This document shows positions 9,205 through 30,100 of a stretch of 51,838 nt of DNA, piece by piece. Each line of letters starts with the position of its first letter. The first letter of the stretch is position 1. Origin of the DNA: an uncultured bacterium (GTDB lineage: Bacteria; Patescibacteriota; Microgenomatia; UBA1400; PJMF01); the NCBI GenBank assembly GCA_903959355.1, contig CAJBWJ010000032.1, positions 1 to 51,838 of the forward strand, read 5' to 3'. The translations under genes and the position numbers were made by a program. Below the pieces are notes generated by a model. The model searched no databases and was not told the origin of the DNA. It worked only from the letters and a program-made list of their open reading frames with translations.

Positions 9205-11433
9205 TTACTTTGGAGGGGTGTAGTCGTTTATGCTATAAACACCGTGCTGATCTGGTTTCATTTCTTTTTTTTCTGGTTCGCCAAAAACAGTTTTTATTTT
9301 AAAGTCTTCTTTTGGCTTCTCTTCTTCATTATTTTGGCTTTGGGCAATGTTATTTTCTCTCTTTTCTAATTCATCATCAGGATTAAAAGCGAGGTGGTCA
9401 CTTTTTAAGGCGCTTTCTGCTGTCTTGTCGGCATTCTCCAGCAAATCCTCTTTAACGTCTATTTCTGGGCTTTGCCATTTTGGTTTATTTTGTTTAATTT
9501 CTTCATGTGAATTTTTAAAATCAGCACTATTAACCAATCGCTGTTTTCTAAGCTCTCTTGTTTTTTTATAGCTCTCATAGCTTTCACTTCTTGGTTCTAG
9601 TCCAGAGCTAATTGTCTTTTTTATTTCTTTGTCATCTTTTTGCTTAAGAATTTCTTCTGGGTTAGTGGTGATAACAGCATGTTCTGCTGGAGAGGCGATA
9701 ACTTTAAGCGCGACGTGGTTCTGACCGGCAAAAAAGATGCCCTCACCAACATCCGATGAGACGAGTAGTTGTCTTTCACCCTCAGATAAGTAAAAAGTTT
9801 GAGTTAAGATTGGTACAGAAGCAGTAGATTGTTTCATTAAAAACTGGATGGAAGCGTTAGAGACGATTGCTTTGCCATAGTCATTGTGTAAAAAGTCTTC
9901 CACATCCTGAGTAATAGTGGTGATGCCTAGATAATATTTACGAGCTCTTTTGACCATCGAATAAACAAAGGCTGCGCTATCTGGATGCATCATAAAGTAC
10001 CAAGCCTCATCAATAACAAGAATACGGCGTTTGAGGTTCTTTTTTACTCTAGTCCAGATGAAATCAAGAATCACATACATGGCAATTGGACGAAGTGATT
10101 CTTCCATTTCTTTAACTGAAAAAACTGTAAACTGAGACTGAATGTTGATGTTGGAAGCCTGATCAAAAATTCCACGGAAAGAACCGGTAATAAATTTTTC
10201 CAAACGGGCGGCAATATCATCACTTTCGTCTTGCTCCATACCGATCAGGGCTTTGTATAGATCTTCCATAAGTGGAGGAGTGTTTTTTTGAGTGGCCGGA
10301 TCTGGAGTAATTCCTTTGGCTTTGTAAGCAGCAATAATAGAGCGATCAAGAAGAGCTTCCTGTTGAGGAGTCATTTCGCCAAGCATAACCTTGAGAAGAC
10401 CGTGAATAGAGAGAATTTTTTGGCCTAATTCATTTTCACCTTCTTCGTAGACATTGGACAAGTCGAAAGGATTTATTTTGGCTTTTGAGCCAAATGTAAA
10501 GTTGATGTATTCGCCGCCAACCATTTTGCAGAGTTCCTCATACTCATGCTCAGGATCGAGAACGATAACTTCGGCATCAAACATTAATTGGCGAAGAACC
10601 TCAAGTTTAACGGTATAGGATTTACCGGCACCAGATTTGGCAAAAATAACCATGTTGGCGTTTTCCATTTTAAAGCGATCAAAAATGACCAAAGAATCAT
10701 TGTGCTCGTTGATGCCATAAACGATACCGGTTTCCATGGTTAATTCTGAAGAAGTGAATGGAAAAGTGGTGGCTAGGGAAGTGGTGTCCATGTTTCTGGT
10801 CACAGAAAGACGATCAACTCCCATTGGTAGGGTGGTCTTAAAACCCTCGTCCATCTGTAGGGCTGATTTTTTGGAAACAATCATTAAAGCACCTAGGGTA
10901 CTTTGAATACTTTTGGTAATTTTATCTAGAACTTCTTTGCTGTCGGCACGAACCGTAACGTAAAGACCAAACTGAAAAAATCTCTCTGAGCCAGCTGCCA
11001 ATTGTTCGCGCATGGAGCGAGCATCACTTAATTTAATTTCTGTATTAATGTTGCTGATTTTTCCGGATCTTATATCCGAAGTAATTTCAGCCTCCATTTC
11101 GGTAATTTTTCTCTTTAAATTATCCAAAATATCACCAGTATCAGATGGAAAGACAAACATGGAAATGTTGGCTTGTTGCGGATAGTTAATGAGCGGCGAG
11201 AGCCAGTTGGCTGGAACAGCTCTCGGATAACCAGCCACAAACAATGTTCTAGTATAAGTAGAATTAATTTTTTGGTAAGTAAAATCAACTTCAATGGCTT
11301 CTGGAGCAATAATATCTTGAATGGTGACTAATCCGCGAGAGAATTCACCCAGTTTTTCTTGCGTGTATTTTTCTGCATCTATCTGATTTTGCTCAGTCGA
11401 AGCGGTGGTTTTCTTTTTGCCAAAAAAATTCAT
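9205..11433 (-). CDS. virB4: VirB4/TrbE/CagE-family T4SS ATPase with Lys/Glu-rich C-terminal tail
   Basis: 742 aa. Walker A FAKSGAGKSYT (DNA ~10621-10641) and Walker B RRILVIDEAWYFM (~10001-10030). The organisation is N-domain plus AAA ATPase. The last ~150 aa are low-complexity and charged. Confidence 0.8.
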   Translation of the reverse strand: MNFFGKKKTTASTEQNQIDAEKYTQEKLGEFSRGLVTIQDIIAPEAIEVDFTYQKINSTYTRTLFVAGYPRAVPANWLSPLINYPQQANISMFVFPSDTGDILDNLKRKITEMEAEITSDIRSGKISNINTEIKLSDARSMREQLAAGSERFFQFGLYVTVRADSKEVLDKITKSIQSTLGALMIVSKKSALQMDEGFKTTLPMGVDRLSVTRNMDTTSLATTFPFTSSELTMETGIVYGINEHNDSLVIFDRFKMENANMVIFAKSGAGKSYTVKLEVLRQLMFDAEVIVLDPEHEYEELCKMVGGEYINFTFGSKAKINPFDLSNVYEEGENELGQKILSIHGLLKVMLGEMTPQQEALLDRSIIAAYKAKGITPDPATQKNTPPLMEDLYKALIGMEQDESDDIAARLEKFITGSFRGIFDQASNINIQSQFTVFSVKEMEESLRPIAMYVILDFIWTRVKKNLKRRILVIDEAWYFMMHPDSAAFVYSMVKRARKYYLGITTITQDVEDFLHNDYGKAIVSNASIQFLMKQSTASVPILTQTFYLSEGERQLLVSSDVGEGIFFAGQNHVALKVIASPAEHAVITTNPEEILKQKDDKEIKKTISSGLEPRSESYESYKKTRELRKQRLVNSADFKNSHEEIKQNKPKWQSPEIDVKEDLLENADKTAESALKSDHLAFNPDDELEKRENNIAQSQNNEEEKPKEDFKIKTVFGEPEKKEMKPDQHGVYSINDYTPPK

Positions 11434-11442
11434 ATTATTTTT

Positions 11443-12936
11443 TTATATAGTTTGATTTTGATCTGGTTTTAATTCTGGCTCAAATTTATTTTGTAGTGGA
11501 GTGATTTCTTCTGCGAAATCACTAGCTAGATTATTATCTGGTGTAATTGAATTCGTTGGGTCAGTAGCTGGTTCTAAGCTTGAACTCAAGTTCGAATCTA
11601 AAGCTGGCTCGACAGCTGGCTCAGTAATTGGATTAGCAATTGGTTCTGTAGTTGGCTCGACAGCTGATTGCTCTGACGAAGTCACTGGACTCTGTTCAAC
11701 AAAAGTTTGAGGAAGAGCGACTTCTGGCTCAGAAAGACTAGAATCAATAAGACTAGAATCAAGACTGATGTCTAAATTTTGGTTTATTTCTTGAGCAGGT
11801 TGGATTGCAGGTTGGTTTATTGGAGCCATTTGTTCTGGAACCATTTGTTCTGCCGAGACCTGATTCGGAACAGCAGAGATAACTGGAGCAGTGGGATCAA
11901 TTGCTTGAGTAAATGGTTCAACAACTGTTTCAATGACTGGTTCGACGATTGGATTGACAATCGGTTCAGAAACTAGAGTTGAATCTACAATTGGACTAAT
12001 AATTGGCTGCTGAACTTCTGGGGTTGCTGATTCCATTACTGGTTGAGCAGCTAAGTTTGAAGTGATTGGCAGATCAGTGTTAGTGGTTGTTGGTTCTGCT
12101 GCTGGAAGATTAGCCAGGCTGCTAGCTGGAGCGGTCGGGGCTGGATTGCCGCTTAAGATTTCTTCTGCAGAAGGACCTTGTGGCATTTGTGCGACTGATG
12201 CTGCCTGATCTTGAACTGGGTTGCCAGATTGATTGTTTAATTGCATAAATTTTCCTCCAAAACTCGCCCTAACTAGGGGAGTGGTATAGTTTTCACTACT
12301 ACTTATTTCTTGTCCCTCAACTGCTTCGGGATTGTAATTTATATAAAAATTTTGAATTATTTCTTGAGTGCTAAGTTGTCTCACATACAATCCAAGGCGA
12401 TTGAATTGAGAAGTTAGATGATCTCTTCTCGGCTCTAATATATTGGTGGCCTTTTCTATAAGAACACTCTTTTCAACAGAGCTGATATCAAAAGCATTTT
12501 TTCCAGGCAAAACGCTAGATGGACTAATCAAGCCCATTTCTCCAGGGGTTGCCGGAACAATAATGTAGAAACGTTTTTGCAGAACATTTCTTTCTTTTAT
12601 TAAAGCTGCAACAAAATCTCTATATTGCTTAATCAATGTTGCTTTTCGATCTGAACTTGCTTTTGTGATTTGTTCATCAAGAAGTCTCAGATATTTTGTT
12701 GCGTCTTTGGTTTGGGATTGTATGTTGATTTGAATTGGGTAGTTTAAAGAATTTAGCAAAGATCCATATGTGAAAATAACCGCATCCTGCTCTTGCTCCG
12801 CTAATAAGCTAAAATTCATCGTTCCGACTTGAAGAATTATGGCAGCAGTGCCATCTTTTAATAGAACCATGTCGTTGACAATGTCATAGACATCAAGAAA
12901 TTCTTGAGTAGTTGATCTAATCGCGTTATCGCTCAT
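11443..12936 (-). CDS. VirB4 N-domain-like protein with ~270-aa Pro/Ala/Thr/Glu-rich disordered tail
   Basis: 497 aa. The first ~230 aa (FLDVYDIVNDMVLLKDGTAAIILQVGTMNFSLLAEQEQDAVIFTYGSLLNSLNYPIQINIQSQ...) follow the same pattern as the N-domain of the adjacent VirB4 (VTIQDIIAPEAIEVDFTYQKINSTYTRTLFVAGYPRAVPANWLSPLINYPQQANISMFVFPS...). There is no Walker motif. The remainder is imperfect EP/PI-type low complexity. Confidence 0.45.
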   Translation of the reverse strand: MSDNAIRSTTQEFLDVYDIVNDMVLLKDGTAAIILQVGTMNFSLLAEQEQDAVIFTYGSLLNSLNYPIQINIQSQTKDATKYLRLLDEQITKASSDRKATLIKQYRDFVAALIKERNVLQKRFYIIVPATPGEMGLISPSSVLPGKNAFDISSVEKSVLIEKATNILEPRRDHLTSQFNRLGLYVRQLSTQEIIQNFYINYNPEAVEGQEISSSENYTTPLVRASFGGKFMQLNNQSGNPVQDQAASVAQMPQGPSAEEILSGNPAPTAPASSLANLPAAEPTTTNTDLPITSNLAAQPVMESATPEVQQPIISPIVDSTLVSEPIVNPIVEPVIETVVEPFTQAIDPTAPVISAVPNQVSAEQMVPEQMAPINQPAIQPAQEINQNLDISLDSSLIDSSLSEPEVALPQTFVEQSPVTSSEQSAVEPTTEPIANPITEPAVEPALDSNLSSSLEPATDPTNSITPDNNLASDFAEEITPLQNKFEPELKPDQNQTI

Positions 12937-12960
12937 GAGCTAGCTTTAGTTTACTAAATT

Positions 12961-13815
12961 TTAGGGCTTGATTACAAGGGGATTGAGAATTTCCCCCTTT
13001 AATTCTATTTCAAAGTTTGGATATTTTTGATCATCTTTTTCTGCCAATATTAAATATTTTCCATTTTCAAGAGATTTGTTGATTGCAAAATTACCATCTC
13101 TATCGCTTTTGATTATCCTTAGGCTTTCTTTGCTTTGATTTTGAATTTCAATAATTGCTTGCGGCACTGCTTGTCCCATTCCATCTATTATTAGTCCATA
13201 AATTTGATTTGGCAGATGATCGCTTGTGGAGACAAAGGCTTGAGGAGCTTTAAGCTTTCTAACTCTTATTTTTAAGTCTGGTTTTTCTTGTTTTCTAATT
13301 TCAACTTCAACTTCATCTTGATCAACTTTAACATTGTCGAATTCATTGAGAATGTTACTAATTTTTTGATTTTCTTCTAAATCAAAATCATCTAATTTTT
13401 CATCACTTGGAATGCTTTTTAGATATTCAAAAATTCTTTGTTTTTTAGCGGGGTTTAAATTAACACTTGGTGCAAAGAAGTCTTCTTGAGCGCTTGTAAT
13501 TTTATAATTAAAAAAATCAGGGATTTTACTGGCTTTTTTCCAAAAAAATTTCGTTGGCTTATAAATGTTTTTAAAAAAAGTTTTAATCCAGTGATCCATC
13601 GGTCTTTCTTCCAAAGGAACAAATGCAATTAAGGCTCCTAAGCCGACTGTTAAAAAAATAAGAGGCCATTTAATCATGCCAATTAAGTTAGTTTTAAAGA
13701 TAACAAAAGCAATAATTACAGCCAAGGCCATTTCTCCAAATTGCTTTAGAGTCATCTGACCGATGAGGTGAAATTTATAGTTGGTAATGTCTTGCGGAAT
13801 TGCGTGCTGTTTCAT
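12961..13815 (-). CDS. PrgI/VirB3-like membrane protein fused to a carboxypeptidase-regulatory-like beta-sandwich
   Basis: 284 aa. The N-terminus MKQHAIPQDITNYKFHLIGQMTLKQFGEMALAVIIAFVIF plus a second TM matches the PrgI-family start (P.DI..Y..K..G.TLRQ). The C-terminus IYGLIIDGMGQAVPQAIIEIQNQ...SDRDGNFAINKSLENGKYLILAEK fits the CarboxypepD_reg pattern. Confidence 0.6.
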   Translation of the reverse strand: MKQHAIPQDITNYKFHLIGQMTLKQFGEMALAVIIAFVIFKTNLIGMIKWPLIFLTVGLGALIAFVPLEERPMDHWIKTFFKNIYKPTKFFWKKASKIPDFFNYKITSAQEDFFAPSVNLNPAKKQRIFEYLKSIPSDEKLDDFDLEENQKISNILNEFDNVKVDQDEVEVEIRKQEKPDLKIRVRKLKAPQAFVSTSDHLPNQIYGLIIDGMGQAVPQAIIEIQNQSKESLRIIKSDRDGNFAINKSLENGKYLILAEKDDQKYPNFEIELKGEILNPLVIKP

Positions 13816-13852
13816 CGATTAATCCATTTTAGCAGAAAGGCTTTGGACTTGT

Positions 13853-14860
13853 TTAGTCGTTAACAGCAGCAGCCACTGCTGGGGTAATTATTTCTGCTTC
13901 AATTTTAATTCCACTAGAATTAGTTATTTTTGCCCCAAATCTATAAAAAGGATAGGCAATTTTTAGCTTATCGTCATAGCGATACTCAATTTTTATTGAA
14001 TATAGATCAGCATTATTAATCCAATTAAGATCAATCGCAGAACTAGCTTTACTATCGGCTTTAATAATTGAGGCATTGCCTTTTTTAATATTATTAATTG
14101 ATTGGTCGATAGAAACAGAAGGAAGTTGTTTTAAAATTTGAAAATTTTGGAAAAAATCTCTAAAAACAATTCTTTCCAAAGCATAAGAATTATTTACGCG
14201 GCAAAAGAATGGGTAGTTGTTTTGATTTTCATAAAAAACTTTATAACCGTCTAATTCGTAAGTTAGAGGAATTTGTAAAAAAACAGCTTTTTTAGGATCA
14301 GTGCTGGTTTGTTCAAAACCGCTGTTTAAATAAATAAGATTGTCTCTTTGTGGAACCAGTGGCGATAAGATGTTATATTTGTTGTAGAAATTTAGGCAGG
14401 TAGACAGGGCTTCTTCAGTAACAATGGGTAAATTATCATCTCCTTTATTTTCAGTGACGCTGCTAAAAGTATAGTAGTTTTCGTAACTATTTTTAGTGAG
14501 AGAATTCTTGCTTGCGAGCCAATAATTTGGAATTTTGCTATCGGCTTCAAGCTGATATTCGTTGATTAATTTATTTGCTAGTCCATCAGCTATTCCGGTG
14601 TTGTTCTCTGTTTGATAGACATTAAATAGCTCTGGAATTTCTATTTTACTGCCGCTAAAAGATACTTTTTTGAAGGTGCTTTGAGTGTCGTCGTAATTAT
14701 TAACTACAAAATTATTAGCAATAATTGTCTCAGATGGTGGAGTAATTATGACAAAAACAGCGGCCAAAATTAAGGCGGCAACTATAACAGCAATGACTAT
14801 AAATAAGAAATTTATTTTTTTTAGGCCGTTTTTCTTTGGCTCAGATGTGTGATTTTGCAT
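13853..14860 (-). CDS. bitopic membrane protein, function unknown (positional candidate for VirB8/TcpC-like role)
   Basis: 335 aa. One N-terminal TM (INFLFIVIAVIVAALILAAVFVII) and a ~290-aa extracytoplasmic region. No motif recognised, so the call is by size, topology and position only. Confidence 0.3.
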   Translation of the reverse strand: MQNHTSEPKKNGLKKINFLFIVIAVIVAALILAAVFVIITPPSETIIANNFVVNNYDDTQSTFKKVSFSGSKIEIPELFNVYQTENNTGIADGLANKLINEYQLEADSKIPNYWLASKNSLTKNSYENYYTFSSVTENKGDDNLPIVTEEALSTCLNFYNKYNILSPLVPQRDNLIYLNSGFEQTSTDPKKAVFLQIPLTYELDGYKVFYENQNNYPFFCRVNNSYALERIVFRDFFQNFQILKQLPSVSIDQSINNIKKGNASIIKADSKASSAIDLNWINNADLYSIKIEYRYDDKLKIAYPFYRFGAKITNSSGIKIEAEIITPAVAAAVND

Positions 14861-14876
14861 ATTTTTATTCCTATTT

Positions 14877-17800
14877 TTAATCGTAGCAACTAGTTACATG
14901 ATCACCAACTTTAGCAGGAGAATTACCATTGTCTGTCTCTGGCATTAGCTGTTCAATGGCTGAGCTTGCTGGTTTTGATCCCCACCAACCGCCCCCCGCA
15001 TCAATTACTGTTCCAAAATGTGAGTGCACATCTCCGATTCCTCTGTTGCTCATTAGTCCAATCATAAAGCCAGCTTCAACCTGCATGCAGGTGTTTGGAG
15101 TACTAAGGGCTGGGTTTGGTTCCTGAAAGTGAGCAAAGTCTTCATAGTAGGTTTGACCTTCGTATTGAAATTCCAGTATGTATCTACATCCATATTGATT
15201 GTCATCGCATCTCTTGAAACAAAGGTTTCCATCAAAATTAGCGTAAACTGGTGGGCCATAGATAGCTGCTCCGGAACAACCATCACAACCAATGTCATAA
15301 CTATCACCAAAACCACCAGCATTTGGAGGGCTGTGGCTGTAATCTCCGAATGGTAATTGCCAGATTGTTCCTGTTGACGGCCAACATCCGGCACCAGCGC
15401 TACAATTTCCAAGACAAACTCTCGCCGCAGTTGTAACGTTATCTGTTCCAGACATAAAAGAGTTTTGATAATAAAAATTAGCCTCAATGGTATTGAGAAT
15501 AGCAGTGTGATTGTAGTTAGAATCCAACTCATCTAGAGTGTAAGTAAATGTTAGGCTTTCGCCGGCTGGAATTACAATAACGCCATCTGTTGGAACTGTT
15601 TCTGATGGAGTCGGTGTTATTTCTCCAGAGCCAATAGTTGGCGTAGGGGTAGTACTAAGCGGAGTGTTTGTTAAACCTCCCTGTTCTTTGATCAAATCTT
15701 TAAAATAATCAAAATCCAAAAGCTTCTCACTCGGAATACTTGGCATGGCCTGACCAGCTTCTTCCCAGCCTTTTTTACTCTGTTTAAACTTAATTGTGTC
15801 TTTTATATCGGTGATTTGTAGTGAAAAATCTTCTTTTGGTTTAATAGTGACAGTGTATTCTATGGAAAGAGGGAAGGATGGATTTTCACATTTAGCCCCA
15901 TCGTTCTCTGGGCTGGCACAACCAGTTTTAATAACTGCGGTTTTGTTAATTTCTGCGTATTTAGATGTCTTTTCACCGCCAGCTCCTCCATTTATTTCTG
16001 ATTCATTTTTTGGAAAATCTGTTAAAAAAGCTGAGTTTAAACTTGTTTGATAAATAAAAATAAAAATAGTGCTTGCTCCAACGGTGGCAATGACAGCCTG
16101 TCCAGCTGTGGCCATTGCCGAAGAAGAGAATTGATTCATTAGGGTCTTGGCTCCTTGAGGAAATTGAGCTCCAGCTCCTTGTCCTTGTGCAGCTGCTCTC
16201 TGTGCCAAGTTAGTTCCGCTTTGACTGCCAAAACCTCCAATTCCTTCACCAATCTTACCAAGAGCTTTTTCTGCTCCAGAGAAGAAATCCTTTATCCCCG
16301 CAAATCCATTGCGCAGCATAATGGCTGCAGGAGCCAGAAGCAATAATAAGGGCAGCATTGAGCTGAGTGCGGCTAGAACAGCGAGCGCAACCAGCCACGG
16401 CCAATTTTTTTTGATAAACTCCAGAACTTTTTCTAAACCCATTTCAATGAGCTGGTTTTTAATTTGTTTAAGAATAGGAATGGAGGCTTCTGCTGCCAAA
16501 AGACCCTCTCCAAATCCAGGAATTAAATAAAGAGCGTCTCCTATGGCTTCAGCAGCTAGTCTTTTACCTGTCTGTCCGATAGCGCTGTCCATGAGGCCGG
16601 TACCGTGATACTCGGTTTCTGGGTCAAAAGCTTGTTGAACATAGCCACTTTCGTCTCTAGCAAAAGCCCCGGGACCAAAAGCTTCTCCAGCCTGGATCAT
16701 ATACAGATCCATTGGGTTTATTTGAGGAAGAATGGTAGTTTCAAAAATTTGAATATTATATGTTGTGTAGGCAACACCAGGCATATAAAACTCAAAGTAA
16801 ACCTTCATGGTTTTTTGCTGTTCAGCTGGTTTAAGTTCTGCTAGCTTGGCTGATAAATATTTAGAAATTAAGTCTTTTTGTTGGGCTTTAAAATCTTCTG
16901 CTGCTTTGTTGTCGACTAATCCATCTAATTCGTCCAATTCGTTTAGTTCTCCTGCATTTTCAGCGAGTTCTTCAGCAGTTGATCTTCCGCCAGTGTAATT
17001 AAGAGTGGTTCCTAAATTGCGTAAAACAGCAGCTCTTTTTGGATCTTTTTTGATTTTTTCATAAAGCTTTTGCGCTTCTTCTGGAGTTAGCTTCTCTTGA
17101 CTGAATTCTTCTCTAATTTCTTTGGCCCAAATAGCTCTTTTGCGTTTCCAATAAAAAATAATTAAATTAGCAAGTTCTTCTTTATGTTCATTAAATTGTT
17201 TTTGATCTATGTCGTTACCAAAAATATTTTTAAAGCGGTTGTAGTCAAAATTCTTTGGATCAGGAATAAGATATTCTGGAGGCAAACCTTGTTGAATCAA
17301 AAGCTCAATAATTGAGCGGGTATTATTTACAATACGCTCGTTTGTTACGCTGTCGTATCCAATAATTCCACTCAATTTCTCTAGAAGAGTTTTGTCCAAT
17401 TGCTGTTCGTTATTGATGATGTCCAATTCTCTTTCAATAACTCTGGCGAAATCAGGATTGGCGGCAGTTTTATCTATCTGTTTTTGAGCAGCTTCTGTGC
17501 TCAATATATTTTCTTTATCGTTTTTTATTCTTTGGCTGATTTTATCTTTAGTGAGTTTTTTCTTTTCATTTTCTTTAGTTCTTTTTTCAGCGCCTTTGCC
17601 TCTCATGGCAATATCGCGCACAGCGGAATTAATCAAGTTTAGCCCATGAACATCCATTAATAAGCCAAGAGCAGCTTGATTACTAAAGTTAATTCTTTGA
17701 GATGAGTCGCTAATGAGTTTGTCTAAAGAAAATTCGCCACCAAGCAATAACGTTTCAACTTGCAGAAAAGAGCGATCCATTAATTGACGACGAATTTCGA

Positions 17801-21900: not shown

Positions 21901-22571
21901 AAATGTGGTTTTTTGGCAATGAAGATAGCCCAGCTAACGTATTGAAAAAATCCAGTCCTCTTGTATTTCATGCATTTCTAAGACATGCTCACGCCACCAA
22001 AAGAGAGAGACCTGCTGATGTGGTCAAGATTTTTTCAGCCATAATGAAGGCAGTGGAGTCTTCTCTCGGAATTATCGGTAGCGGTCCTAAAGTTAATAGA
22101 GGTTTAGGTTCCGGATCAGTGAGCAAGGCTGTTGCTGTTGTTCATGAGTGGATGGAAGGTCATCATGACGAGCGTGTGTATAGCGATGGAAAACCAAATT
22201 GGGGAGAAGCAATCTCGAGAGGCCTAGGAGGCCAACCTATGCTTGATCCAAAAATTTGCGATGGTTTTACTCCATTATCTGGAAGTTGTTTTGATGCCAG
22301 GCAACCTCTACTGATTGATTACTTGAAGCTTCTTTGGGAAGATTTTTCTGAAGAATACACCACAAAAGAAAATCCAGATGGACTTGGCAAGTGGCCATTC
22401 GTAATAACAGCTGATTTAGGGATTAAATATGTTGCCTGGGCTCCATCCGAGGCCCCTATTAAGCTTAGTGGTAGAACTAATGAATGGACAGAAATTGTAG
22501 ATTGGTTTAGAGCTCGAATTCTGCGTAAAGAGCCAGTCTCATCCCCTCTTAAAAGACCTAAGTTTGATTGA
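18924..22571 (+). CDS. 1215-aa hypothetical cytoplasmic protein (no TM, no signal peptide, no recognisable domain)
   Basis: Long uninterrupted ORF with codon and amino-acid usage like its neighbours. The N-terminal ~450 aa are acidic and coiled-coil-like. It is transcribed divergently from the T4SS-like operon and ends with TGA. Confidence 0.7.
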   Translation: MNPEAQTEYQRKLEEASEKVIANLKRKRDHLGLSYEELKDEIKASIKEKILPIADEYDSLLAGEINIDTPLAAISKKIKSAFEPVKEPIKKDEDEEDVDSESDDLESLKTYQKILDKIAFYTQAIAEIGKIKNEIVADPGFSKSNVVAGLAPFLDLFFEAGLKVDFVVTVEREGFDDPVELHKNDTILLKDIAMAIKLNKDARGARARRDIESFTESVFGRLQIPKDEVPTTPKRIISMLAKEFFNLVPDFKNLKVALIDQTIELAKKKKDTYEDSTQRINKNYEKIFNPKLGDLKTVLDDFGDDLTHRGYEKGKISKKKQDGLTDELNDKTKVVLMELGSMRRPVSEKKNSLNELLSLIQSYEEDFAANEDDEASGKIDKKELKRLQNSLQDKLILKASKIAKSIDLKKEQLEDSKELEQAKSTIKDEIYKADSVLIMYDFFQDELVRQRTLFIEEWGLDEFTKDIENREVDSLSPWEIVKYVIKKEVAFWTPLHQESDNEFLRALVDKIKYNFMEDGKGYESNGSRMGTDDDAWSNSEGRTIMGLLQTYALYASSIHGEHFAEGKKDELFNNLRAFKITREGLYGETLGHPVYGPYLTKIMEISQYLPTLRQGSLPPIAILSDLNLLKSKMIPDQYEIFKDRLGRAVNPSRLVVLHERNVIREGKSIKLAADRFVKDDDGNWAFYPGEETLPTDQLILTSNPDFSYQTLSGNIGRTVASRLHEFAAELIDNNPEQFGLTKDDIPKNEDNVFAVQTFAQFLFYSFPFLTKIYADYELQTQTASHTVKSETLNWNKLFSPLGEAIQDSDRYGLRSALMWIFVYYAPFKEGLFGASGNSTRINRIQKLMIAHQKFVFGEDAMSHIAGQLDAHNYFGLPLGFTTALDMIKISEGEISRLFGDIIHEDGRVNPGSFENPHKIGPKGDIDADDDGKKVEGLPAYDWDLFLLSAKAYLKLLETTIKDIEVGSLTLHDLEQGELNPITQLLFKVMGQFKMWFFGNEDSPANVLKKSSPLVFHAFLRHAHATKRERPADVVKIFSAIMKAVESSLGIIGSGPKVNRGLGSGSVSKAVAVVHEWMEGHHDERVYSDGKPNWGEAISRGLGGQPMLDPKICDGFTPLSGSCFDARQPLLIDYLKLLWEDFSEEYTTKENPDGLGKWPFVITADLGIKYVAWAPSEAPIKLSGRTNEWTEIVDWFRARILRKEPVSSPLKRPKFD

Positions 22572-22631
22572 TCAAACTAGTTTTCACGGAATTTAATTAT
22601 TAGGAGACTTAAATTTTAGAAGTTTCAGATT

Positions 22632-24377
22632 TTAAGAACTTCCACCCTTACCTAGATTAGCGCCTGCGCTTGGAGTCTCTGTCTTTGCTTCAGCAGCTTT
22701 TCCATGACCTTCACCAGGCTTATTCTTCTCAAGGTTATGTTTATACATGTCTTCAGCCCAATTCTTTCTCAAAATGCTGCCGCTAGTGATGTCTTGTATT
22801 GTGGTATTTGCCGTACGACCCCATTCCATTCCTTCTCCAGCTCCACCAAGCATACCCTTAGATTTCATCTCTATTGCATTTCCATCACCATCATTCTGAC
22901 CTGTAATTGTTCCACCCATAATAGCGTGCGATAGAGCACCTCTAGCGCTTCCACCACCTTGCTTATAGTAGTTTTTATAATCTCTGTAAGCACTAACGCC
23001 TCCAGGAACTGCTTTGGCCACAGCACCTGCTACTGGCAAACTGGCATCAGCAATTGGTTTCATCTTGCCAAATGCACTGCTGGCTAACTGTCCAAATATT
23101 CCTTCATCCACGCCCATAGCTTTTTTGACCTGTTGCATGATCTCTGGAATGACCAATAAAACACCAATGCCAAGAATTACTGGAACAATGGCACCCTGGC
23201 CCTGGCCAACTAAAAATGGAGGCATAAAGCCACCACCAAAAGCTGTGTCTAGAGTTTGTCCGGTGCCTTGTAAAGCGCGAATTGGAGCAGTCAGCATTCT
23301 TTGTACTAATACACAAACTAAAACAACTGGCCAAAGAACTAGATTGCCTACCAGATCTTTAATCCATTTACCAAAAACATTCTTTCCAGGAAAAGCACCC
23401 ATCATTAAAACGATTGGCGAAAAAATAATTTGAATAAGTACAGCCACATAAGTTTTGACTAATTCGAAGAAAACCTTAAATGTGGCAAAAAGAATAGCAA
23501 TACCGATGATAACTGTACCAAGTAAACTAGACATCCAGGCAATAGCTTCACCAACCAGGCCAATATTTAAGGCATCTTCCATAAACTGTTCAATAGCATT
23601 TTGAGTAGCACCAGTAGTACCTTTAAACATTAGACCAACTAGGCCAAAAATATTTCGAGTAACAATATCTGTTCCTTCGGAGAAGAAACCAGCCAACATA
23701 TACATGGCGACATACATTAAATCAATCATAAAACCAGCAATGGCATAGGAAAAAGTAACAGCGAGCATGGCGACAATGACACTTGGAATGGCTTGTTGCG
23801 CGGTAATTGCGGCTTGGCCAACCTTAGTTCTAAACATGATCATAAAACCAATAATTAAGAAAATTAAAACAAAGAATAGATAAGCTAAATTGCGAAAAGC
23901 CTTCCAAGTTTCTAGGATTGGATCGAGAGCAGAGAAGCCTAAACCCTGAGCTTGAGCTTCTGGAATGATTTTGGCTGATCTCATGACATCGGCGACATAA
24001 ACGCGAGCACTAGCAGGTTGTTTGTAGAGAGCAACAATGCCTTTGTTGACATCACCAAGTACGCCATAACCAAGCTGCTTTTCCAAAGCTTTTCGCTCGG
24101 AAGTCGTAATATCTGCACTTTTTGGTATACCTGCCATGCCAACACTATGAAAAACCAATCCAGTAAAAATATTTGAAAGACTTTCTTGATCAAACTTTTC
24201 TTTATCTGCTTCTATTTTAGCAAAAGACTTAGCACTTTTTGTGCCAGAGGCGGTAGTAAAAATTCCTTGCAACCAATCGATAACGCTAGCTGCTTTGGCA
24301 GGCTTAGCTGACATGAAAAAACATGAGAAAACAAAAAATAAAATCAGCAGTAGGCGAGAGGCTTTTTTCTGCATCAT
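22632..24377 (-). CDS. VirB6/TrbL-like polytopic membrane protein with Gly-rich C-terminal tail
   Basis: The ORF track gives 22632-24455. The internal ATG at 24377 (or 24374) yields a textbook signal peptide MMQKKASRLLLILFFVFSCFFMSAKPAKA|AS. About 7-8 TM helices are followed by a ~130-aa Gly-rich soluble tail. Assignment rests on topology, size and neighbourhood, and no motif was verified. Confidence 0.5.
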   Translation of the reverse strand: MMQKKASRLLLILFFVFSCFFMSAKPAKAASVIDWLQGIFTTASGTKSAKSFAKIEADKEKFDQESLSNIFTGLVFHSVGMAGIPKSADITTSERKALEKQLGYGVLGDVNKGIVALYKQPASARVYVADVMRSAKIIPEAQAQGLGFSALDPILETWKAFRNLAYLFFVLIFLIIGFMIMFRTKVGQAAITAQQAIPSVIVAMLAVTFSYAIAGFMIDLMYVAMYMLAGFFSEGTDIVTRNIFGLVGLMFKGTTGATQNAIEQFMEDALNIGLVGEAIAWMSSLLGTVIIGIAILFATFKVFFELVKTYVAVLIQIIFSPIVLMMGAFPGKNVFGKWIKDLVGNLVLWPVVLVCVLVQRMLTAPIRALQGTGQTLDTAFGGGFMPPFLVGQGQGAIVPVILGIGVLLVIPEIMQQVKKAMGVDEGIFGQLASSAFGKMKPIADASLPVAGAVAKAVPGGVSAYRDYKNYYKQGGGSARGALSHAIMGGTITGQNDGDGNAIEMKSKGMLGGAGEGMEWGRTANTTIQDITSGSILRKNWAEDMYKHNLEKNKPGEGHGKAAEAKTETPSAGANLGKGGSS

Positions 24378-24485: not shown

Positions 24486-25340
24486 ATGATCGATCAAGCA
24501 CAAACTGATAAATTTAAGGAAATTCTAGGGTTAAGTAAAAATACTTTAGTTATTTTTCCAGAAACCAAAGATCTCGATTTGTTTTTAGCTAGTTATTGTC
24601 TTTATTCTTTTTTGTCTTCAAATAGTGATGCTAGGTTACTTAGTCCAAAATTTAAGCAAAAACTTCCTACTGAGCTTCTTGATTTAGTTGAAAGTAAAAA
24701 AATCGAAACTGAACTTGGTAAAGAAAATTTATTGATGAGTTTTCCTTATCAAGAAGAACAGGTTGATAATGTTTCTTATTACATTGGCGAGCAAGACAAG
24801 CGCTTTTATTTGACTATAAAGCCGAAAAAAGGCGTCACTCCTCTCGATAGTTCCAAAGTTGAATTTTCATACGCCGGCAGCCAAGCTGATCTGTTGATTT
24901 TATGTGGAGTAGAGGATTTGGAAAAATTAGGGCAATTGTATTTTGCTTATGAAAATCTTTACAAAAGCGTTAACAATCATTTAGTAACAATCAATAATTT
25001 TATTCCTGACTTTGGCAATTTGAATTTAGACATTTCTCCAACCAGCTCTTACTCTGAAGCTGTTTTTTATTTGCTTAAGAACTTAGATGGAGAAGATCAA
25101 GACATTTTAGCTAAAAGTGATATCCCAACGCTGCTCCTTTATGGCATTGAATATAAAAGTCGTGGACTACAATCATTTGATGTAAACGCTAATACTTTTT
25201 TGGCAGTAGCTCAACTGCTTCAGCTTGGGGGAATGCGTTTGTTCAAATTGGATATAAAAACCAAAGAATCTAGTCTCGCAAATTCTTTGAAAAAAAGCCA
25301 AAAAATTATTGACCAGAACCAGATTCATTTAATAAAATAG
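24486..25340 (+). CDS. hypothetical cytoplasmic protein
   Basis: 284 aa with no TM. Faint resemblance to the DHH/NrnA N-domain layout, but the catalytic DHH/DxD motifs are absent. The 3' end overlaps the convergent 974-aa gene by 35 nt. Confidence 0.5.
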   Translation: MIDQAQTDKFKEILGLSKNTLVIFPETKDLDLFLASYCLYSFLSSNSDARLLSPKFKQKLPTELLDLVESKKIETELGKENLLMSFPYQEEQVDNVSYYIGEQDKRFYLTIKPKKGVTPLDSSKVEFSYAGSQADLLILCGVEDLEKLGQLYFAYENLYKSVNNHLVTINNFIPDFGNLNLDISPTSSYSEAVFYLLKNLDGEDQDILAKSDIPTLLLYGIEYKSRGLQSFDVNANTFLAVAQLLQLGGMRLFKLDIKTKESSLANSLKKSQKIIDQNQIHLIK

Positions 25341-28230
25341 CTGTAGTAAGCGAGCCGGGTCTCTCGTACTTTGGATATTTTCTTCCTTCACTCAAAGTCT
25401 GACAAATGCTCGAATTAGAATAGCAATATTTAGCCGCATCAGTTATCAATTGTTCCTTTTTTTCATCTGTGAAACCATATTCTGCTTGAGACTGGTCTAA
25501 ACTACTTCGCAATTCTGACATTACCTCTGGAGTTGGGTCTGTGTTACAACTAAATTCCGTGTAATCCAAACAATAAACCAGATCCATGTCGCTGTGTCTT
25601 TCATCAATCCAGCCGAGTGGATGTGGATGGTCTTCCGAATAGAATTTTGGAGGACATTTGCCACCAGCTTTCCAACGAGTTTCTCTGGCACAATTTTGAT
25701 TACCCATGCCATTGTAGTCGCCAATAGCTCCAGTCAACGATTCATAATCGATGTTATTTTTATCAAATGAACCCTGCCATTTGCTTATCAAGTGTTCCAT
25801 GGCTGCTTTAGCATCTTCTTTTAATGTTCCTCTTAGTGATCCGCCATCAAAAACTGATTTGGTTGGATCAAGTCCGGCCTCAGTCCAATGAATTCCAGCA
25901 ACTACTTCGCAGGGAATACCAGTTTCTTTTTCTGCGTATTCATAAGCCTCAATTAATTCTGGAGTAATTTGAATTGCTATTTCTGCAGTGAAAATATCTT
26001 TGGCATATTGAGGAATTTGAGTGGCGCTCGGTAAATTTTTGATATTTTTATATCCCTCACCACTACAAAATGATTTGTTTGCTCCGCCTATTGGATCGCC
26101 TTTGCAGCGACCAAGAAACATATCCTCAACTCTTTGACAGGAAAGGATGTAATCGTAGGTTTGATTAAAGGTATTACGCAATTTTTGTTGAATTTTACGC
26201 ACCATGAATCCAAGGCCAAAGTCTGGAATGAGCAAGTTTCCTTTGCTTGAACTTTCATTTTTACTGGTGGTGTCGCTAAAACCAAAACCAAAAGTATAGT
26301 GAGAGCAAGTCTCAACTAAATCTGTGTACCAACCGCCGTTTTTGTCTTTTTTAATTACTTCTTTATATTCACACTTATCTATTGGATTGATTTGTTGAGA
26401 GGTGCTTATGCCAAAAGTAGCATCTTTAATGGTGTAATATTTTGGAATGGCTCCTTGTTTACTAGTTCCGTCTGGATTTGTCATATCTTCAATAACATTG
26501 GTTTTGATCATGTCGAAAAATTCTTCTTCACTCCAAAAAATACTCAGAGCTTTGTTAACGTCTTTGACATTTTCTCCAATTGGCACAACTAAATAGGCAT
26601 TAACAATCATTGGAGGATCGAGTGGAGGACGGTCTTCATCGACAGTGAGTTCCCATTCAAATGGATTTAAAAATTTCGATCTTAATTTATTAGCAACTTC
26701 AGTATTAGAATCACTGGTGTAGCTGTATTGCCTCATATCTTTTGAAGCTGGTGTAAAAAGATCGCCTGCATTTTCCCAGTTCAGATCTTCTTGATTAAAA
26801 ATCATTTCAATTGCGCTGGCGGTGGCTTGTCTCTCATTTACTCCAAAACCGGATGCATCTATTTCTTCTCCGGCATCAGTAGTAGTGCTTTCTATAATTC
26901 TAAGAGTATCGTTTCTACATTTTGGAGAAGTGCCGTTAATAATGTCGATGAGAACTTTTTCAAGTGGCTTGATGCATTTTGGATATGGACAGTGAATAAC
27001 AGGATCTGGTTTAGTTTGAGCCAAGCTATAAATCATGTCTCTTTTGTCTTTTTGATCTGCAAGGTCTTTGTCGTTTTGTTCTTTTGGTTGCAAAATCATC
27101 TTGGTTAGCTCAAGAGAATCAATGTTGCCAGAAATTCTGGATTTGTTGGTGGCAAAATCTGGAATTTTAAAAGCGATGAAAATAGGAGCGTGTATTTTAA
27201 GATCAATCTGAGGCTTTTCTTGTAAAAAATAAAATTTATCGCCATCATCATCCTTTCCAGGATCTTGAGTTGGAACTAAAACAAGAAAAGCCAATCGATA
27301 TAAAGTATCCAAATCGATAGGCATTCTACCCACAGCTTCTCTCAATTTGGCAATTTTATTAATATCTACATTTGGAGGAGTGTATCCAGTATCAACGCTG
27401 TTTGCCGCATTATCTCCTCCAGCTATATCGAAGCAAACCTGTTGATATAGCTTTTCTTTGCTTAATTCTGGACGAATTTCTTGAAACCAACTTAGTAGGT
27501 CGGTCATTTTAAAATCAACATTTTCGACATGTTCTGTTGATGTCATGCTTCCAATCTCTGAATCTGTAACAACTCTACTGCTTCCATTCGTATCAACGGC
27601 AATTTTAAAATTATATTTTTTGTTAATAGTGCACTCATCGGTTACTTCGTTACAAATTTGCTCTATAGATACAAGATTTTGTGTTTTGGCCAAACACTGC
27701 TGATAAGAGGATAAGACTCTTTTCGCCACACCGGAAGAATTTAACATATAACTATCTTGAACGGTTTGATAATTAGCACCGAACATGCCTTCAAGTGAGC
27801 TGTTTTTTTGAGTTGTGTTTTTATCTTCCATGCCGCGGAACATTGGAATGCGAGCCTTGGTGAGATCTACAATATAAGGATCAACTCCTCCAAATATTGT
27901 GGGATTCAGGCCATTGTAAAAACTTTCTTCTGGAGGAGTACTACTGCTAAAGAACTTTTCAATATTTCCAAGCAGTTTCTTATCAATAGTCCACTGCATG
28001 GCTGCGCAATGTGCCTCGTAGCCCTGATCTTTGACCATGGCTATTAGGAGGTCACCATAATTGTAGCTTGGGCCTTTTGGCAGAAACATCGGCATGAGCG
28101 TAAAAGCATTTGCAGAATCTCCAATCTCCGAATCAGCGCTTTGAGCAAAAACAATGTTTTTTGAGGAAAAAATCAAAACTAAAAAATAGAATAAACTAAA
28201 AATCGCTCTTTTTGAAAATCGATTAAACAC
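25306..28230 (-). CDS. 974-aa secreted Cys-rich protein with possible lytic-transglycosylase-like C-terminal region
   Basis: GTG start at 28230. Signal peptide MFNRFSKRAIFSLFYFLVLIFSSKNIVFA|QS. The C-terminal segment AEKETGIPCEVVAGIHWTEAGLDP resembles the MltB/SLT_2-type motif (yGVP.e.i.aI...E..fG). Confidence 0.45.
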   Translation of the reverse strand: MFNRFSKRAIFSLFYFLVLIFSSKNIVFAQSADSEIGDSANAFTLMPMFLPKGPSYNYGDLLIAMVKDQGYEAHCAAMQWTIDKKLLGNIEKFFSSSTPPEESFYNGLNPTIFGGVDPYIVDLTKARIPMFRGMEDKNTTQKNSSLEGMFGANYQTVQDSYMLNSSGVAKRVLSSYQQCLAKTQNLVSIEQICNEVTDECTINKKYNFKIAVDTNGSSRVVTDSEIGSMTSTEHVENVDFKMTDLLSWFQEIRPELSKEKLYQQVCFDIAGGDNAANSVDTGYTPPNVDINKIAKLREAVGRMPIDLDTLYRLAFLVLVPTQDPGKDDDGDKFYFLQEKPQIDLKIHAPIFIAFKIPDFATNKSRISGNIDSLELTKMILQPKEQNDKDLADQKDKRDMIYSLAQTKPDPVIHCPYPKCIKPLEKVLIDIINGTSPKCRNDTLRIIESTTTDAGEEIDASGFGVNERQATASAIEMIFNQEDLNWENAGDLFTPASKDMRQYSYTSDSNTEVANKLRSKFLNPFEWELTVDEDRPPLDPPMIVNAYLVVPIGENVKDVNKALSIFWSEEEFFDMIKTNVIEDMTNPDGTSKQGAIPKYYTIKDATFGISTSQQINPIDKCEYKEVIKKDKNGGWYTDLVETCSHYTFGFGFSDTTSKNESSSKGNLLIPDFGLGFMVRKIQQKLRNTFNQTYDYILSCQRVEDMFLGRCKGDPIGGANKSFCSGEGYKNIKNLPSATQIPQYAKDIFTAEIAIQITPELIEAYEYAEKETGIPCEVVAGIHWTEAGLDPTKSVFDGGSLRGTLKEDAKAAMEHLISKWQGSFDKNNIDYESLTGAIGDYNGMGNQNCARETRWKAGGKCPPKFYSEDHPHPLGWIDERHSDMDLVYCLDYTEFSCNTDPTPEVMSELRSSLDQSQAEYGFTDEKKEQLITDAAKYCYSNSSICQTLSEGRKYPKYERPGSLTTAILLNESGSGQ

Positions 28231-28236
28231 GCTTTG

Positions 28237-28242: not shown

Positions 28243-28257
28243 CTAACAATAGAGGCT

Positions 28258-29157
28258 CTAGGAAAGAATGCGAATGCCAAAAATTAATTCTAATAATTGA
28301 GCAATCCAGTAAGCTGCAAACAATAGAATAAAGCCTAGAATAGCTGCCGTAATTCTTTGTTTTCCCTCATCAATTGATTTGGAATTAGTAGCTCCAGTAA
28401 GCATTTGAAAGCCTCCTAAAACGAGAACCACAAAGAGAATAATTCCAGCGATTGGAAAAATGAATCCACCAAGAGCTTTGGAAATAATTCCACCAGGAGT
28501 AGTTAAGTCGCCGTCACCTCCACCAATCGTGATCGGATTGAGACCATTCAGTGTTCCTGCTGAAACGGTGGCGCTACTGATCCCGACGTCAGTGCTTTCG
28601 CATTTGCCATCTCTTTCCCAGCCACAGCAGGTTTTTCCGCCAGTCATTGGTACTTCGCCTCCACCACCTCCGCAAATACACTTTTTATCCTCAGTAGTGA
28701 GATAAGTTTCACCACAAAAAGCAGTGGTGTCATCAGGATTTGCAGTTAAGCATTGATCAAAAAAATCTCCGTCTTTGACCCAGCCGCAACAAACATCACG
28801 ATTAACAATCCATAAAATATTTGATTGTTGATAGGACTGCCATTGTCCTCCCTCGCAATTACAAGTTGCACCTTCTGGAACAGTGGCATCGCCTAAAGTT
28901 TCTCCGCAGCCATATTCGTTTGGATCTTCGTAAGCTCGACATTTGCCGCCACCCATAAACCCACAGCAATATTGAGTTCTAATTCCGTGACCTATCTGTT
29001 CAGTGGTTAGATTTGTACTTTCGCAATCACACATTCCTACGATATTAGCGTCATCTGCAGCAGTGAAATATTGTCCACAAGTGGCTGCCTTAGCGGCTCC
29101 AATAAAAAATAAGCTAAAAATTATCTGTAAAAAAGCTATTTTTATAATTTTTTTCAT
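28258..29157 (-). CDS. VirB2/TrbC-like 'T4SS pilin' hairpin fused to a Cys-rich repeat ectodomain
   Basis: 299 aa. Signal peptide MKKIIKIAFLQIIFSLFFIGAAKA|A. Three internal repeats of CxC...CCG[FW]...GxC. The C-terminal two-helix hairpin is GGFIFPIAGIILFVVLVLGGFQMLTGATNSKSIDEGKQRITAAILGFILLFAAYWIAQLL. GGAG lies 8 nt upstream of the ATG. Confidence 0.6.
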   Translation of the reverse strand: MKKIIKIAFLQIIFSLFFIGAAKAATCGQYFTAADDANIVGMCDCESTNLTTEQIGHGIRTQYCCGFMGGGKCRAYEDPNEYGCGETLGDATVPEGATCNCEGGQWQSYQQSNILWIVNRDVCCGWVKDGDFFDQCLTANPDDTTAFCGETYLTTEDKKCICGGGGGEVPMTGGKTCCGWERDGKCESTDVGISSATVSAGTLNGLNPITIGGGDGDLTTPGGIISKALGGFIFPIAGIILFVVLVLGGFQMLTGATNSKSIDEGKQRITAAILGFILLFAAYWIAQLLELIFGIRILS

Positions 29158-29159
29158 GA

Positions 29160-30044
29160 TTACACTCCAAATCCTGGAATATGTAGTATAGATACTCCAA
29201 TGAATTGCAAAATAGTGACTGAAAAAATTACGAATAAGAGACCGATGACTGCAGAAGTGATAATTTCTTTGGCCTCTTTTGTTTTATTTGGGTCTCCTTG
29301 AGAGACGGAGAGCATGAAAGCTCCTACTAGAATCATCACCAGTACAATTCCGCCTCCCAGTCCTAGTCCAATGGTAATCACAACCTTAATAATGCTTTCT
29401 GGATTGCTAGGAATACAGCCAATAGCTGTCCAAATGCCTTTGGAGCTAAAACAATCAGCACAAGCTTGATACTGATCTGTGCCGGTTTTAATTTGTGCGC
29501 AGAGCTCATAACTGCCAATTAGACTTAGGTCTTCATTGCATTGCTCTGCAGAACATTGTGCTTGCACTGGCATTGAACTAGAAACAATAACAGTATTGTT
29601 TTCTGCTCCTTCAACCGAATCGTTTGAAAGATGGACCTCAAACTGATATGAGCAACCGCCTTTTATTTCTCTTCCAGGAATAGTGAAGTTTGTCTGTCCG
29701 TCAGTATAATCAAATAAAAGATATTTGAGGTCGTCTGTGGTTCCATCTAATTCAATTCCATCTGGCCAGCCACTACAACCACTGCTACCAATCAATCTGG
29801 CTTTTACTTTATGTTCTCCTTCTGGCAATGGAGTGCCATTGTTGAAAGCGAGGCCGGCGAGATTGATTGTCACATCTTCTCCAGCTACTACGCAGCCATT
29901 GAAGAAGTTACATTGTTTGCCATCACGAGATTGATAAGCCTCAACTGTCTCAATAATTGGAGCGGAATCAGCTGCAAGAACAAGGTCTTTACTCAATAAA
30001 AAAGAGAAACAAAAAAATCCAAAAACCAGAGCTATTTTTCTCAT
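29160..30044 (-). CDS. VirB2/TrbC-like 'T4SS pilin' hairpin fused to a different Cys-containing ectodomain
   Basis: The ORF track starts at GTG 30053. The ATG at 30044 is preceded by GAGGTGA at a 5-nt spacing and gives the signal peptide MRKIALVFGFFCFSFLLSKDLVLA|AD. The C-terminus GIWTAIGCIPSNPESIIKVVITIGLGLGGGIVLVMILVGAFMLSVSQGDPNKTKEAKEIITSAVIGLLFVIFSVTILQFIG is a two-helix hairpin as in CPR T4SS pilin families. Confidence 0.6.
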   Translation of the reverse strand: MRKIALVFGFFCFSFLLSKDLVLAADSAPIIETVEAYQSRDGKQCNFFNGCVVAGEDVTINLAGLAFNNGTPLPEGEHKVKARLIGSSGCSGWPDGIELDGTTDDLKYLLFDYTDGQTNFTIPGREIKGGCSYQFEVHLSNDSVEGAENNTVIVSSSMPVQAQCSAEQCNEDLSLIGSYELCAQIKTGTDQYQACADCFSSKGIWTAIGCIPSNPESIIKVVITIGLGLGGGIVLVMILVGAFMLSVSQGDPNKTKEAKEIITSAVIGLLFVIFSVTILQFIGVSILHIPGFGV

Positions 30045-30100
30045 TTTATTCACCTCTATATTAAATCATTAAAAAGCTTTAAAACCAAGCTATTATTTAG

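Follow-up and report, generated by a model that had tools for sequence, protein, structure and literature searches.

The closest described relatives of the gene cluster analysed here are the type IV secretion systems (T4SSs) of the Patescibacteria, the candidate phyla radiation (CPR). In Southlakia epibionticum, the 'apparent T4SS' SEML1_0006-0019 was found by transposon sequencing (Tn-seq) to be essential for epibiotic growth (PMC10633639); this cluster resembles Gram-positive conjugative systems, its pilins are essential, and it is without a recognisable coupling protein or relaxase (Wang et al. 2023 Cell, PMC10633639). A survey of 3,035 Patescibacteria genomes (Quinonero-Coronel et al. 2025 Microb Genom, PMC12102498) reports a monophyletic VirB4 clade nested in MPF_FATA, and a relaxase-less, non-conjugative T4SS is the published conclusion for the phylum (PMC12102498, PMC10633639, PMC12857230). 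Here we examine a 51,838-nt stretch of DNA, contig CAJBWJ010000032.1 of an uncultured bacterium (the window), for which an earlier reading of the letters alone (the original prediction) had proposed a relaxase-less, monoderm-type T4SS-like machine next to the replication origin. Our data indicate that the cluster is very probably a chromosomally fixed, vertically inherited Patescibacteria T4SS beside dnaA, in a Pacebacteria/Microgenomates-like genome. The system as such was already described in 2023-2025 (PMC10633639, PMC12102498), and what is new in the window is a few lineage-specific accessory parts.

By composition the cluster is like that of S. epibionticum, which is chromosomal, with monoderm-type subunits, pilins, peptidase and lysozyme homologues and no relaxase (PMC10633639), and whose low locus-tag numbers suggest a position at the start of the genome numbering. 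The two lineages differ in that S. epibionticum belongs to the Saccharimonadia and the window is Pacebacteria/Microgenomates-like, and essentiality has been shown only in S. epibionticum. In PMC12102498 the partner met most often is TrsD, homologues of PrgI/VirB3 are present, and VirB2-like pilins and arrays are abundant in Microgenomatia; type IV coupling protein (T4CP) homologues are mostly far from virB4, relaxases number only 109, VirB6 is scarce in Microgenomatia, VirB8 is almost undetectable, and the typical neighbours are dnaA, dnaN, rnpA and rpmH. With the system as given there the window shares an MPF_FATA-like VirB4, an adjacent TrsD, PrgI/VirB3, VirB2 arrays and the lack of a relaxase, and also a distant T4CP homologue, the dnaA/dnaN/rnpA/rpmH location and an elusive VirB6 and VirB8; nothing essential differs between the two. 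The part of the survey consulted yielded no mention of a YycH-like bitopic protein, a hypervariable soluble giant or cysteine-rich (Cys-rich) pilin ectodomains of ~200 aa. The title and inference of the original prediction match the abstract of PMC12102498. Its view that most of the parts are undescribed is right for the lineage-specific accessory proteins but not for the rest, and the pilins and the paralogue of the VirB4 N-domain, which it had counted as unexpected extras, are indeed present but are described hallmarks of the Patescibacteria T4SS.

Conservation of the cluster beside dnaA

The 35 proteins of the window were scanned against profile libraries at E<=0.01, with Pfam matches judged by the gathering threshold (GA) and NCBIfam matches by the family cutoff. 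All of the open reading frames (ORFs) discussed in the original prediction exist where it placed them, and its VirB4 assignment is borne out by a match to NCBIfam NF045971 (conju_CD1110) at E=1e-116, with 391 bits against a cutoff of 325, accompanied by matches to Pfam P-loop_TraG and AAA_10 and a weak one to CagE_TrbE_VirB. Scanning one genome per species yielded 262 VirB4 relatives, and across the loci of the best 80 of these identity is 66-89%; where the record titles of these best 80 loci are informative they name Pacebacteria, Woesebacteria, Paceibacterota or 'Patescibacteria group' metagenome-assembled genomes. Plasmid-borne VirB4s, from Bacillota and Actinomycetota, are at best <=35% identical. 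VirB4 surpasses DnaA in conservation in 69 of 72 loci (medians 80% vs 54%), a comparison that is biased in size because VirB4 similarity decided the ranking of the loci. The same VirB4 median stands against 47% for DnaN and 54% for YidC, with VirB4 ahead in nearly all related genomes. Many of the loci L006-L083 that have clear patescibacterial synteny are titled 'uncultured Pseudomonadales bacterium', apparent database mislabels, and the complete genome CP011212.1, titled 'candidate division TM6', looks mislabelled too.

The gap between dnaA and virB4 is 110 bp, with dnaN, rpmH (L34), rnpA, yidC and jag lying beyond dnaA, and SpoIID/VanW genes flank the other side of the cluster, which confirms the housekeeping neighbours named in the original prediction. 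Using tblastn of every window protein against 84 VirB4-bearing loci, we found the dnaA-virB4 junction in 79 of the 84, from different species-level genomes. The block DUF4012-RNaseH-Jag-YidC-RnpA-DnaN-DnaA-VirB4-TrsD-PrgI is kept in 58-80 of these loci, nearly all of them Patescibacteria assemblies, with the short divergent RnpA found in only 24, and the neighbourhood comparison across CPR genomes that had been suggested as a check came out in favour of a conserved locus. Two of the loci, the metagenome contigs L086 (841 kb) and L091, keep the whole order VanW-SpoIID-pilin-pilin-974aa-DHH-VirB6-slot-giant-bitopic-PrgI, which in L086 continues into TrsD. The identity of VirB4 also tracks that of the housekeeping neighbours (Spearman rho 0.26-0.45).

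No member of a relaxase, integrase, replication or partition family was found among the 35 window proteins, as the original prediction had held. A 164.7-kb metagenomic contig (ENA ERZ27313463 k141_1049054) contains the window as an identical stretch and supplied the flanks, and the called genes of the 10 kb on each side include no relaxase, integrase or other mobility gene. Flanking att-like direct repeats, whose absence had likewise been claimed, were not found; a relaxase and integrase with att repeats just outside the window, the finding that had been named as refuting, is not there in the 10 kb on either side. From these comparisons the cluster appears to be vertically inherited core chromosome and not an integrative and conjugative element (ICE).

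Components of the apparatus and their surroundings

The coordinates of the components are collected in Table 1. The TrsD-like gene adjoins virB4 in 80 of the 84 loci, and its product matches NF041427 TrsD (1.4e-6) and the N-region of VirB4_plasma (1.6e-6), both under cutoff, carries a precomputed PF26593 TraC-like domain and has a tail of ~250 aa that reads as low-complexity and P/T/S/E-rich. For the PrgI-like protein, which had been predicted as such, the match to PrgI PF12666 reaches 29.4 bits against a GA of 27; its two transmembrane (TM) helices fall within residues 22-68, its C-terminal extension is weakly CarboxypepD_reg-like, and the gene is present in 77 of the 84 loci.

Table 1. Position and supporting evidence of the T4SS cluster, its dnaA anchor and the T4CP-like ATPase (window coordinates)
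Feature	Coordinates	Strand	Evidence or remark
dnaA, context anchor	7517-9094	-	Pfam Bac_DnaA 4e-66
VirB4-type ATPase (MPF_FATA / CD1110 family)	9205-11433	-	NF045971 above cutoff and Pfam
TrsD-like, VirB4 N-domain paralogue	11443-12936	-	sub-cutoff TrsD/VirB4-N matches, PF26593
PrgI/VirB3-like membrane protein	12961-13815	-	PF12666 above GA, 2 TM helices
Bitopic extracytoplasmic protein, 335 aa	13853-14860	-	TM prediction, AlphaFold2 (AF2) and Foldseek
1283-aa membrane protein with C-terminal M23-type metallopeptidase domain	14877-18728	-	orthologue Pfam matches, motif residues
1215-aa soluble protein, divergent from M23 giant	18924-22571	+	without TM helix or signal peptide
Polytopic membrane protein, VirB6 candidate	22632-24377	-	topology and position
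284-aa soluble protein, faint DHH resemblance	24486-25340	+	PF01368 E=0.006, below GA
Secreted 974-aa Cys-rich protein, lysozyme-/lytic-transglycosylase-like C-terminus	25306-28230	-	SLT_3 match of distant homologues
VirB2-type pilin, 299 aa	28258-29157	-	PF18895 32.6 bits, GA 26.6, residues 227-289
Second VirB2-type pilin, 297 aa	29160-30053	-	PF18895 29.9 bits, GA 26.6, residues 230-285
T4CP-superfamily ATPase without membrane anchor	38936-41125	-	TrwB_AAD_bind, TraG-D_C above GA

A monoderm T4SS is expected to bring its own peptidoglycan hydrolase, and the cluster would have this activity in an M23 and an SLT_3-like family. The candidate for the cell-wall hydrolase of the machine is the 1283-aa protein, found in about 48 of the 84 loci. 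The window copy has no Pfam match of its own, while 30 of 41 orthologue C-termini match Peptidase_M23 (best 3e-20) and the alignment shows the SH..D, AH and HxH (HSH) motif residues to be preserved in the window copy; on both of these grounds the 'M23-like giant' of the original prediction is supported. The protein is laid out as a ~770-aa N-terminal region without signal peptide, TM segments (helices 779-797 and 874-892), an extracytoplasmic Cys-rich region and the M23 domain, and it shows weak BLASTP similarity to the window's own M23/LysM protein. In one subclade (L015, L017-L022 and L090) the giant has another Cys-containing domain in place of M23, which suggests that the wall-cutting module has been swapped; Peptidase_C39_2 gave weak matches in 2 of the 41 scanned C-termini.

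The 974-aa protein has a predicted signal peptide, in agreement with the secretion claimed for it, 20 Cys and about 60 homologues. Its distant homologues P0117 and P0120 match SLT_3 PF18896 above GA, and these stretches align to residues ~777-921 of the window protein, where the near-invariant E784 faces the Glu of the 'AES' motif in P0117. Foldseek of the AF2 model (mean confidence, pLDDT, 81.5) returned nothing at E<=0.001, and below that threshold only lytic transglycosylases, at E of about 1-4. Sequence and profile searches of the PDB with the 974-aa and 1283-aa families gave no significant match, and PADLOC and PHROGs brought up nothing relevant for the unknown proteins.

Next to the PrgI-like gene, in about 48-49 loci and at 20-60% identity, stands the gene of the 335-aa protein, which is bitopic because it has one N-terminal TM helix; three alpha/beta domains make up the remainder. 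The AF2 model (pLDDT 88.6) retrieves YycH of Bacillus from the PDB with Foldseek (9a5d_B at 1.9e-5 and 2fgt at 5.8e-4), and by its fold the protein models as YycH-like, not VirB8-like. The original prediction was therefore right about its topology but not about its likeness to VirB8, YycH being the best PDB match.

The VirB6 candidate has 12 overlapping hydrophobic windows, roughly 6-8 helices, and a signal-like N-terminus. Its one family match is to the TM family NF045889 Mbov_0396 of an ICE, at a sub-cutoff E=4.5e-4, no Pfam or PDB profile matched, and the gene is kept at 35-78% identity in 13 loci. The polytopic topology and the position proposed for a VirB6-like protein thus hold, but homology, represented by the Mbov_0396 match, is weak. 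Beside it, between the VirB6 candidate and the 974-aa gene, the gene of the 284-aa protein is unchanged in position and orientation in 6 of the 7 loci that have it; a canonical DHH motif is not evident by eye in its product.

Between the VirB6 candidate and the giant lies a slot that, in the window, is filled by the 1215-aa protein. As predicted, this is an orphan and by its features cytoplasmic: searches of Pfam, NCBIfam, PADLOC, PHROGs and the PDB gave no match. Its family comprises 16 cluster representatives among 1.84e9 proteins, and a word-indexed search found four members. All 10 of the 10 loci that span the slot (L011, L015, L017, L019, L022, L084, L085, L086, L090 and L091) have exactly one TM-less ORF there, on the opposite strand and of 719-1215 aa, and at least three groups, unrelated or patchily similar, can be told apart among these ORFs. 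With hhalign the 1215-aa family aligns to the slot protein of L091 at 88% probability, and to those of L086, L019 and L084 at a probability of <1%. Such a pattern would fit a translocated effector or host-specificity factor and may reflect an arms race with the host bacterium.

Both window pilins have a signal peptide and two C-terminal TM helices, and their match to T4SS_pilin PF18895 is confined to the last ~60-70 residues. The ectodomain of the 299-aa pilin, which has 18 Cys in all, extends over ~200 aa and reads from the translation as three tandem 6-Cys modules, CG..CxC..CCG[W/F]..C; that of the second pilin is also of ~200 aa and has 11 Cys. Pilin termini face outward in solved conjugative pili. 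The Cys-rich ectodomains, being N-terminal to the pilin core, would thus decorate the outside of a T4SS pilus and may serve as built-in variable adhesins. A further array of seven small VirB2-like genes (112-175 aa, all on one strand, L092 17834-20887) sits 5-8 kb past the left edge of the window on the same contig, with the oriC-proximal housekeeping block between it and the main T4SS cluster. Most of these small pilins share W..EW(I/V)T(S/A)GGD..K and are otherwise very divergent; PF18895 is on record for 4 of the 7. Neither the slot protein nor the pilin ectodomains were found mentioned in the literature consulted on the Patescibacteria T4SS.

The VirD4/TraD-like ATPase of the original prediction matches TrwB_AAD_bind at 49.2 bits (GA 20.5), TraG-D_C at 24.2 bits (GA 22) and conju_CD1115 at 5.9e-14, under cutoff; it has the Walker A motif GKTGTGKS and, by precomputed matches, an N-terminal DUF8128. 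Its gene is convergent and almost abutting with radA (37476-41125 for the pair). The T4CP domains were thus confirmed, but membership of the protein in the machine is uncertain because a TM anchor is lacking and genes of this kind usually lie apart from virB4 in the phylum. As reported in PMC12102498, T4CP homologues are rarely near virB4 and are non-essential in S. epibionticum, and radA, recG and comF occur near T4SS genes in the class ABY1.

Around the cluster, the left 10 kb hold L25, a tRNA synthetase, NUDIX, a prenyltransferase, the small-pilin array, a sigma factor and a recF-like gene, and the right 10 kb a 632-aa protein followed by a >2947-aa laminin-G/glycine-rich surface protein. 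Further along in the window, 46423-48534 encodes an 11-TM protein that has TPR repeats, and 48538-50283 holds three type-IV-pilin-like genes bearing N_methyl motifs; next come the 632-aa protein, which is glycine-rich and runs over the window edge, and the >2947-aa protein (Laminin_G_3/Gly_rich_2); 46423-51838 together with L093 10459-20462 make up a second surface-apparatus neighbourhood. The window contains no tRNA and no Rfam family.

The GC content is 35-41% in the T4SS region, 30-32% in the first 8 kb and 35-40% in the housekeeping genes further right. A foreign island marked by high GC at 9-30 kb was considered and rejected, the housekeeping genes at 36-50 kb having the same GC. GC skew, though noisy, switches sign near 7 kb, in keeping with an origin at dnaA. 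If the origin is at dnaA, the minus-strand operon from virB4 to the giant (9095-18728) runs toward it, head-on to replication, which with the reservation of a noisy skew would be unusual for a highly conserved, presumably highly expressed operon. DnaA boxes with one mismatch number 19 against 13 expected, which is not significant; the dnaA-dnaN spacer contains two near-DnaA-boxes, and so does the dnaA-virB4 spacer. A scan of 10.5-30.4 kb for promoter and terminator consensus found sites no more frequent than in shuffles.

Relation to conjugative and other monoderm systems

Likeness to the MPF_FATA class (CTn CD1110/CD1115, pCF10 Prg, pIP501 Tra, pCW3 Tcp) is seen in the VirB4 over the CD1110 cutoff, the PrgI-like protein and the T4CP-superfamily ATPase, and a TrsD-like protein is shared with the pGO1 subclass of monoderm systems. 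The large membrane-anchored wall hydrolase is another point of likeness; PrgK of pCF10 carries a LytM/M23-type domain. Unlike the conjugative members of MPF_FATA, the window is without relaxase, oriT, integrase, replicon or a detected VirB8-like fold, and it has pilins, an anchorless and unlinked T4CP-like protein, and a cluster fixed beside dnaA across many species.

The best VirB4 in the plasmid database (35% identity, CD1110 family) is that of Pontibacillus sp. ALD_SL1 (L095, NZ_CP062975.1, 351-361 kb), on a non-mobilizable 898-kb replicon. Its neighbours are an 'Mbov_0395 family pilin-like' gene, a 779-aa hypothetical protein that is likely polytopic, small hypotheticals and a 1050-aa M23 'DD-metalloendopeptidase', and because of these flanking genes we take it as a further monoderm cluster that is relaxase-poor, has pilins and encodes a giant M23 protein. 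It differs from the window in belonging to the Bacillota, in lying on a megaplasmid or chromid beside flagellar genes, and in showing clear homology for VirB4 only: when the 1283-aa protein was compared with the Pontibacillus M23 giant by BLASTP, nothing outside the M23 motif was significant, and hhalign of the VirB6 candidate against the polytopic protein of that cluster gave a probability of 38%. The Pontibacillus cluster may nevertheless be a relaxase-less T4SS relative in the Bacillota. A further comparison is offered by the Mycoplasma ICE (Mbov_0395 pilin-like, Mbov_0396 TM, Mbov_0397 VirB4), since the window VirB4 matches VirB4_plasma at 1.6e-79; this match and that to Mbov_0396 are both far below the family cutoffs, and the Mycoplasma ICEs are mobile elements that have a DDE recombinase of their own, whereas the window locus is not mobile.

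Function of the system and competing explanations

The domain matches, the dnaA synteny and the absence of mobility genes in ~72 kb (the window and 10 kb on each side) support a T4SS repurposed away from conjugation in an ultra-small, probably episymbiotic bacterium, as the original prediction had proposed. In such a machine VirB4 and TrsD would dock on PrgI and the polytopic protein to form a membrane translocon energised by VirB4 together with TrsD, and the M23 and SLT_3-like hydrolases would open the cell's own wall and possibly that of the host. VirB2 pilins would be pulled from the membrane and assembled as a polymeric pilus or conduit, with the Cys-rich ectodomains of the large pilins on its outside contacting the host cell. 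The machine would then move proteins or other macromolecules, not plasmid DNA, between epibiont and host, and we favour such exchange over DNA conjugation. A pilus conduit is also the subject of speculation in a 2025 FEMS review, which otherwise repeats the findings of the survey.

Several observations weigh against this interpretation. The relaxase search spans ~72 kb of a 165-kb contig, and VirB4 is placed in the Patescibacteria clade by inference from its nearest relatives. VirB6 is a candidate by position, topology and one sub-threshold match, the 50 best PDB matches of the whole bitopic model in Foldseek include no VirB8, TraM, TcpC or PrgL, and the T4CP-like ATPase is without a TM helix and lies 9 kb from the cluster. 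Cargo, direction of transport and pilus production, finally, are not readable from sequence.

Among the other explanations, a ComB/Ced-like import machine, taking up DNA, nucleotides or host molecules through the pilus and so feeding a biosynthetically deficient cell, is possible but on the whole unlikely. The idea has been raised in PMC11665869 and PMC12857230, and it is in line with the missing relaxase, with the convergence of the T4CP-like gene and radA, and with weak matches of VirB4 and the T4CP-like ATPase to archaeal CedB (1.2e-12) and CedD (4e-7). These Ced matches, however, stay far under the cutoffs and are a sign of homology among ATPases in general, and the window has no ComEC, ComEA or DprA. 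Deletion of comEC in S. epibionticum ends competence but not viability (PMC10633639, PMC12857230), and because the deletion strain is viable the essentiality of the T4SS does not run via ComEC. Import is further held back by a direction of transport that, as said, sequence does not give.

We consider it distinctly improbable that the system is an adhesion organelle in which VirB4 only assembles a VirB2 pilus, the Cys-rich ectodomains bind the host and nothing is translocated. Nine very divergent VirB2-like genes in or next to the window, two of them with large variable ectodomains, would suit such an organelle, as would the coupling protein that is not clearly linked and the essential pilin array of S. 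epibionticum (PMC10633639). Type IV pili for adhesion and motility are, however, already encoded in these genomes, with three such pilin genes at 48538-50283, giant adhesin-like proteins lie next door, and the conserved polytopic channel candidate and the strong conservation of VirB4 suit a translocon no less than a machine for pilus assembly. We give hardly any credence to an ICE, or a decayed remnant of one, inserted next to oriC with its relaxase and integrase outside the window, for which a VirB4 family annotated from conjugative elements (CD1110), a T4CP-superfamily ATPase and a GC above that of the first 8 kb could be cited, but against which stand the lack of relaxase, integrase, Rep or Par in the window and 10 kb each side, the lack of flanking direct repeats, the dnaA junction of 79 of the 84 loci, a VirB4 identity that tracks that of its housekeeping neighbours and the equal GC of housekeeping genes further right.

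Exchange of proteins or other macromolecules with a host is the reading that we prefer. What the Patescibacteria T4SS does is acknowledged to be an open question; a perspective in PNAS of 2024 calls the role 'completely unknown' and names effector delivery and uptake (PMC11665869). In the single species tested, the system proved essential. The locus adds no new kind of system; it is a well-conserved example from a Pacebacteria/Microgenomates-like lineage. It does provide candidate assignments for parts that hidden Markov model surveys miss in this group, namely VirB6, the M23 and SLT_3 hydrolases and a YycH-like bitopic protein at the place of VirB8. That the slot protein and the Cys-rich pilin ectodomains are jointly the lineage-specific features defining how the machine works is a tentative idea that we hold to be rather doubtful, and the slot protein would all the same be a sensible first candidate in a search for substrates.

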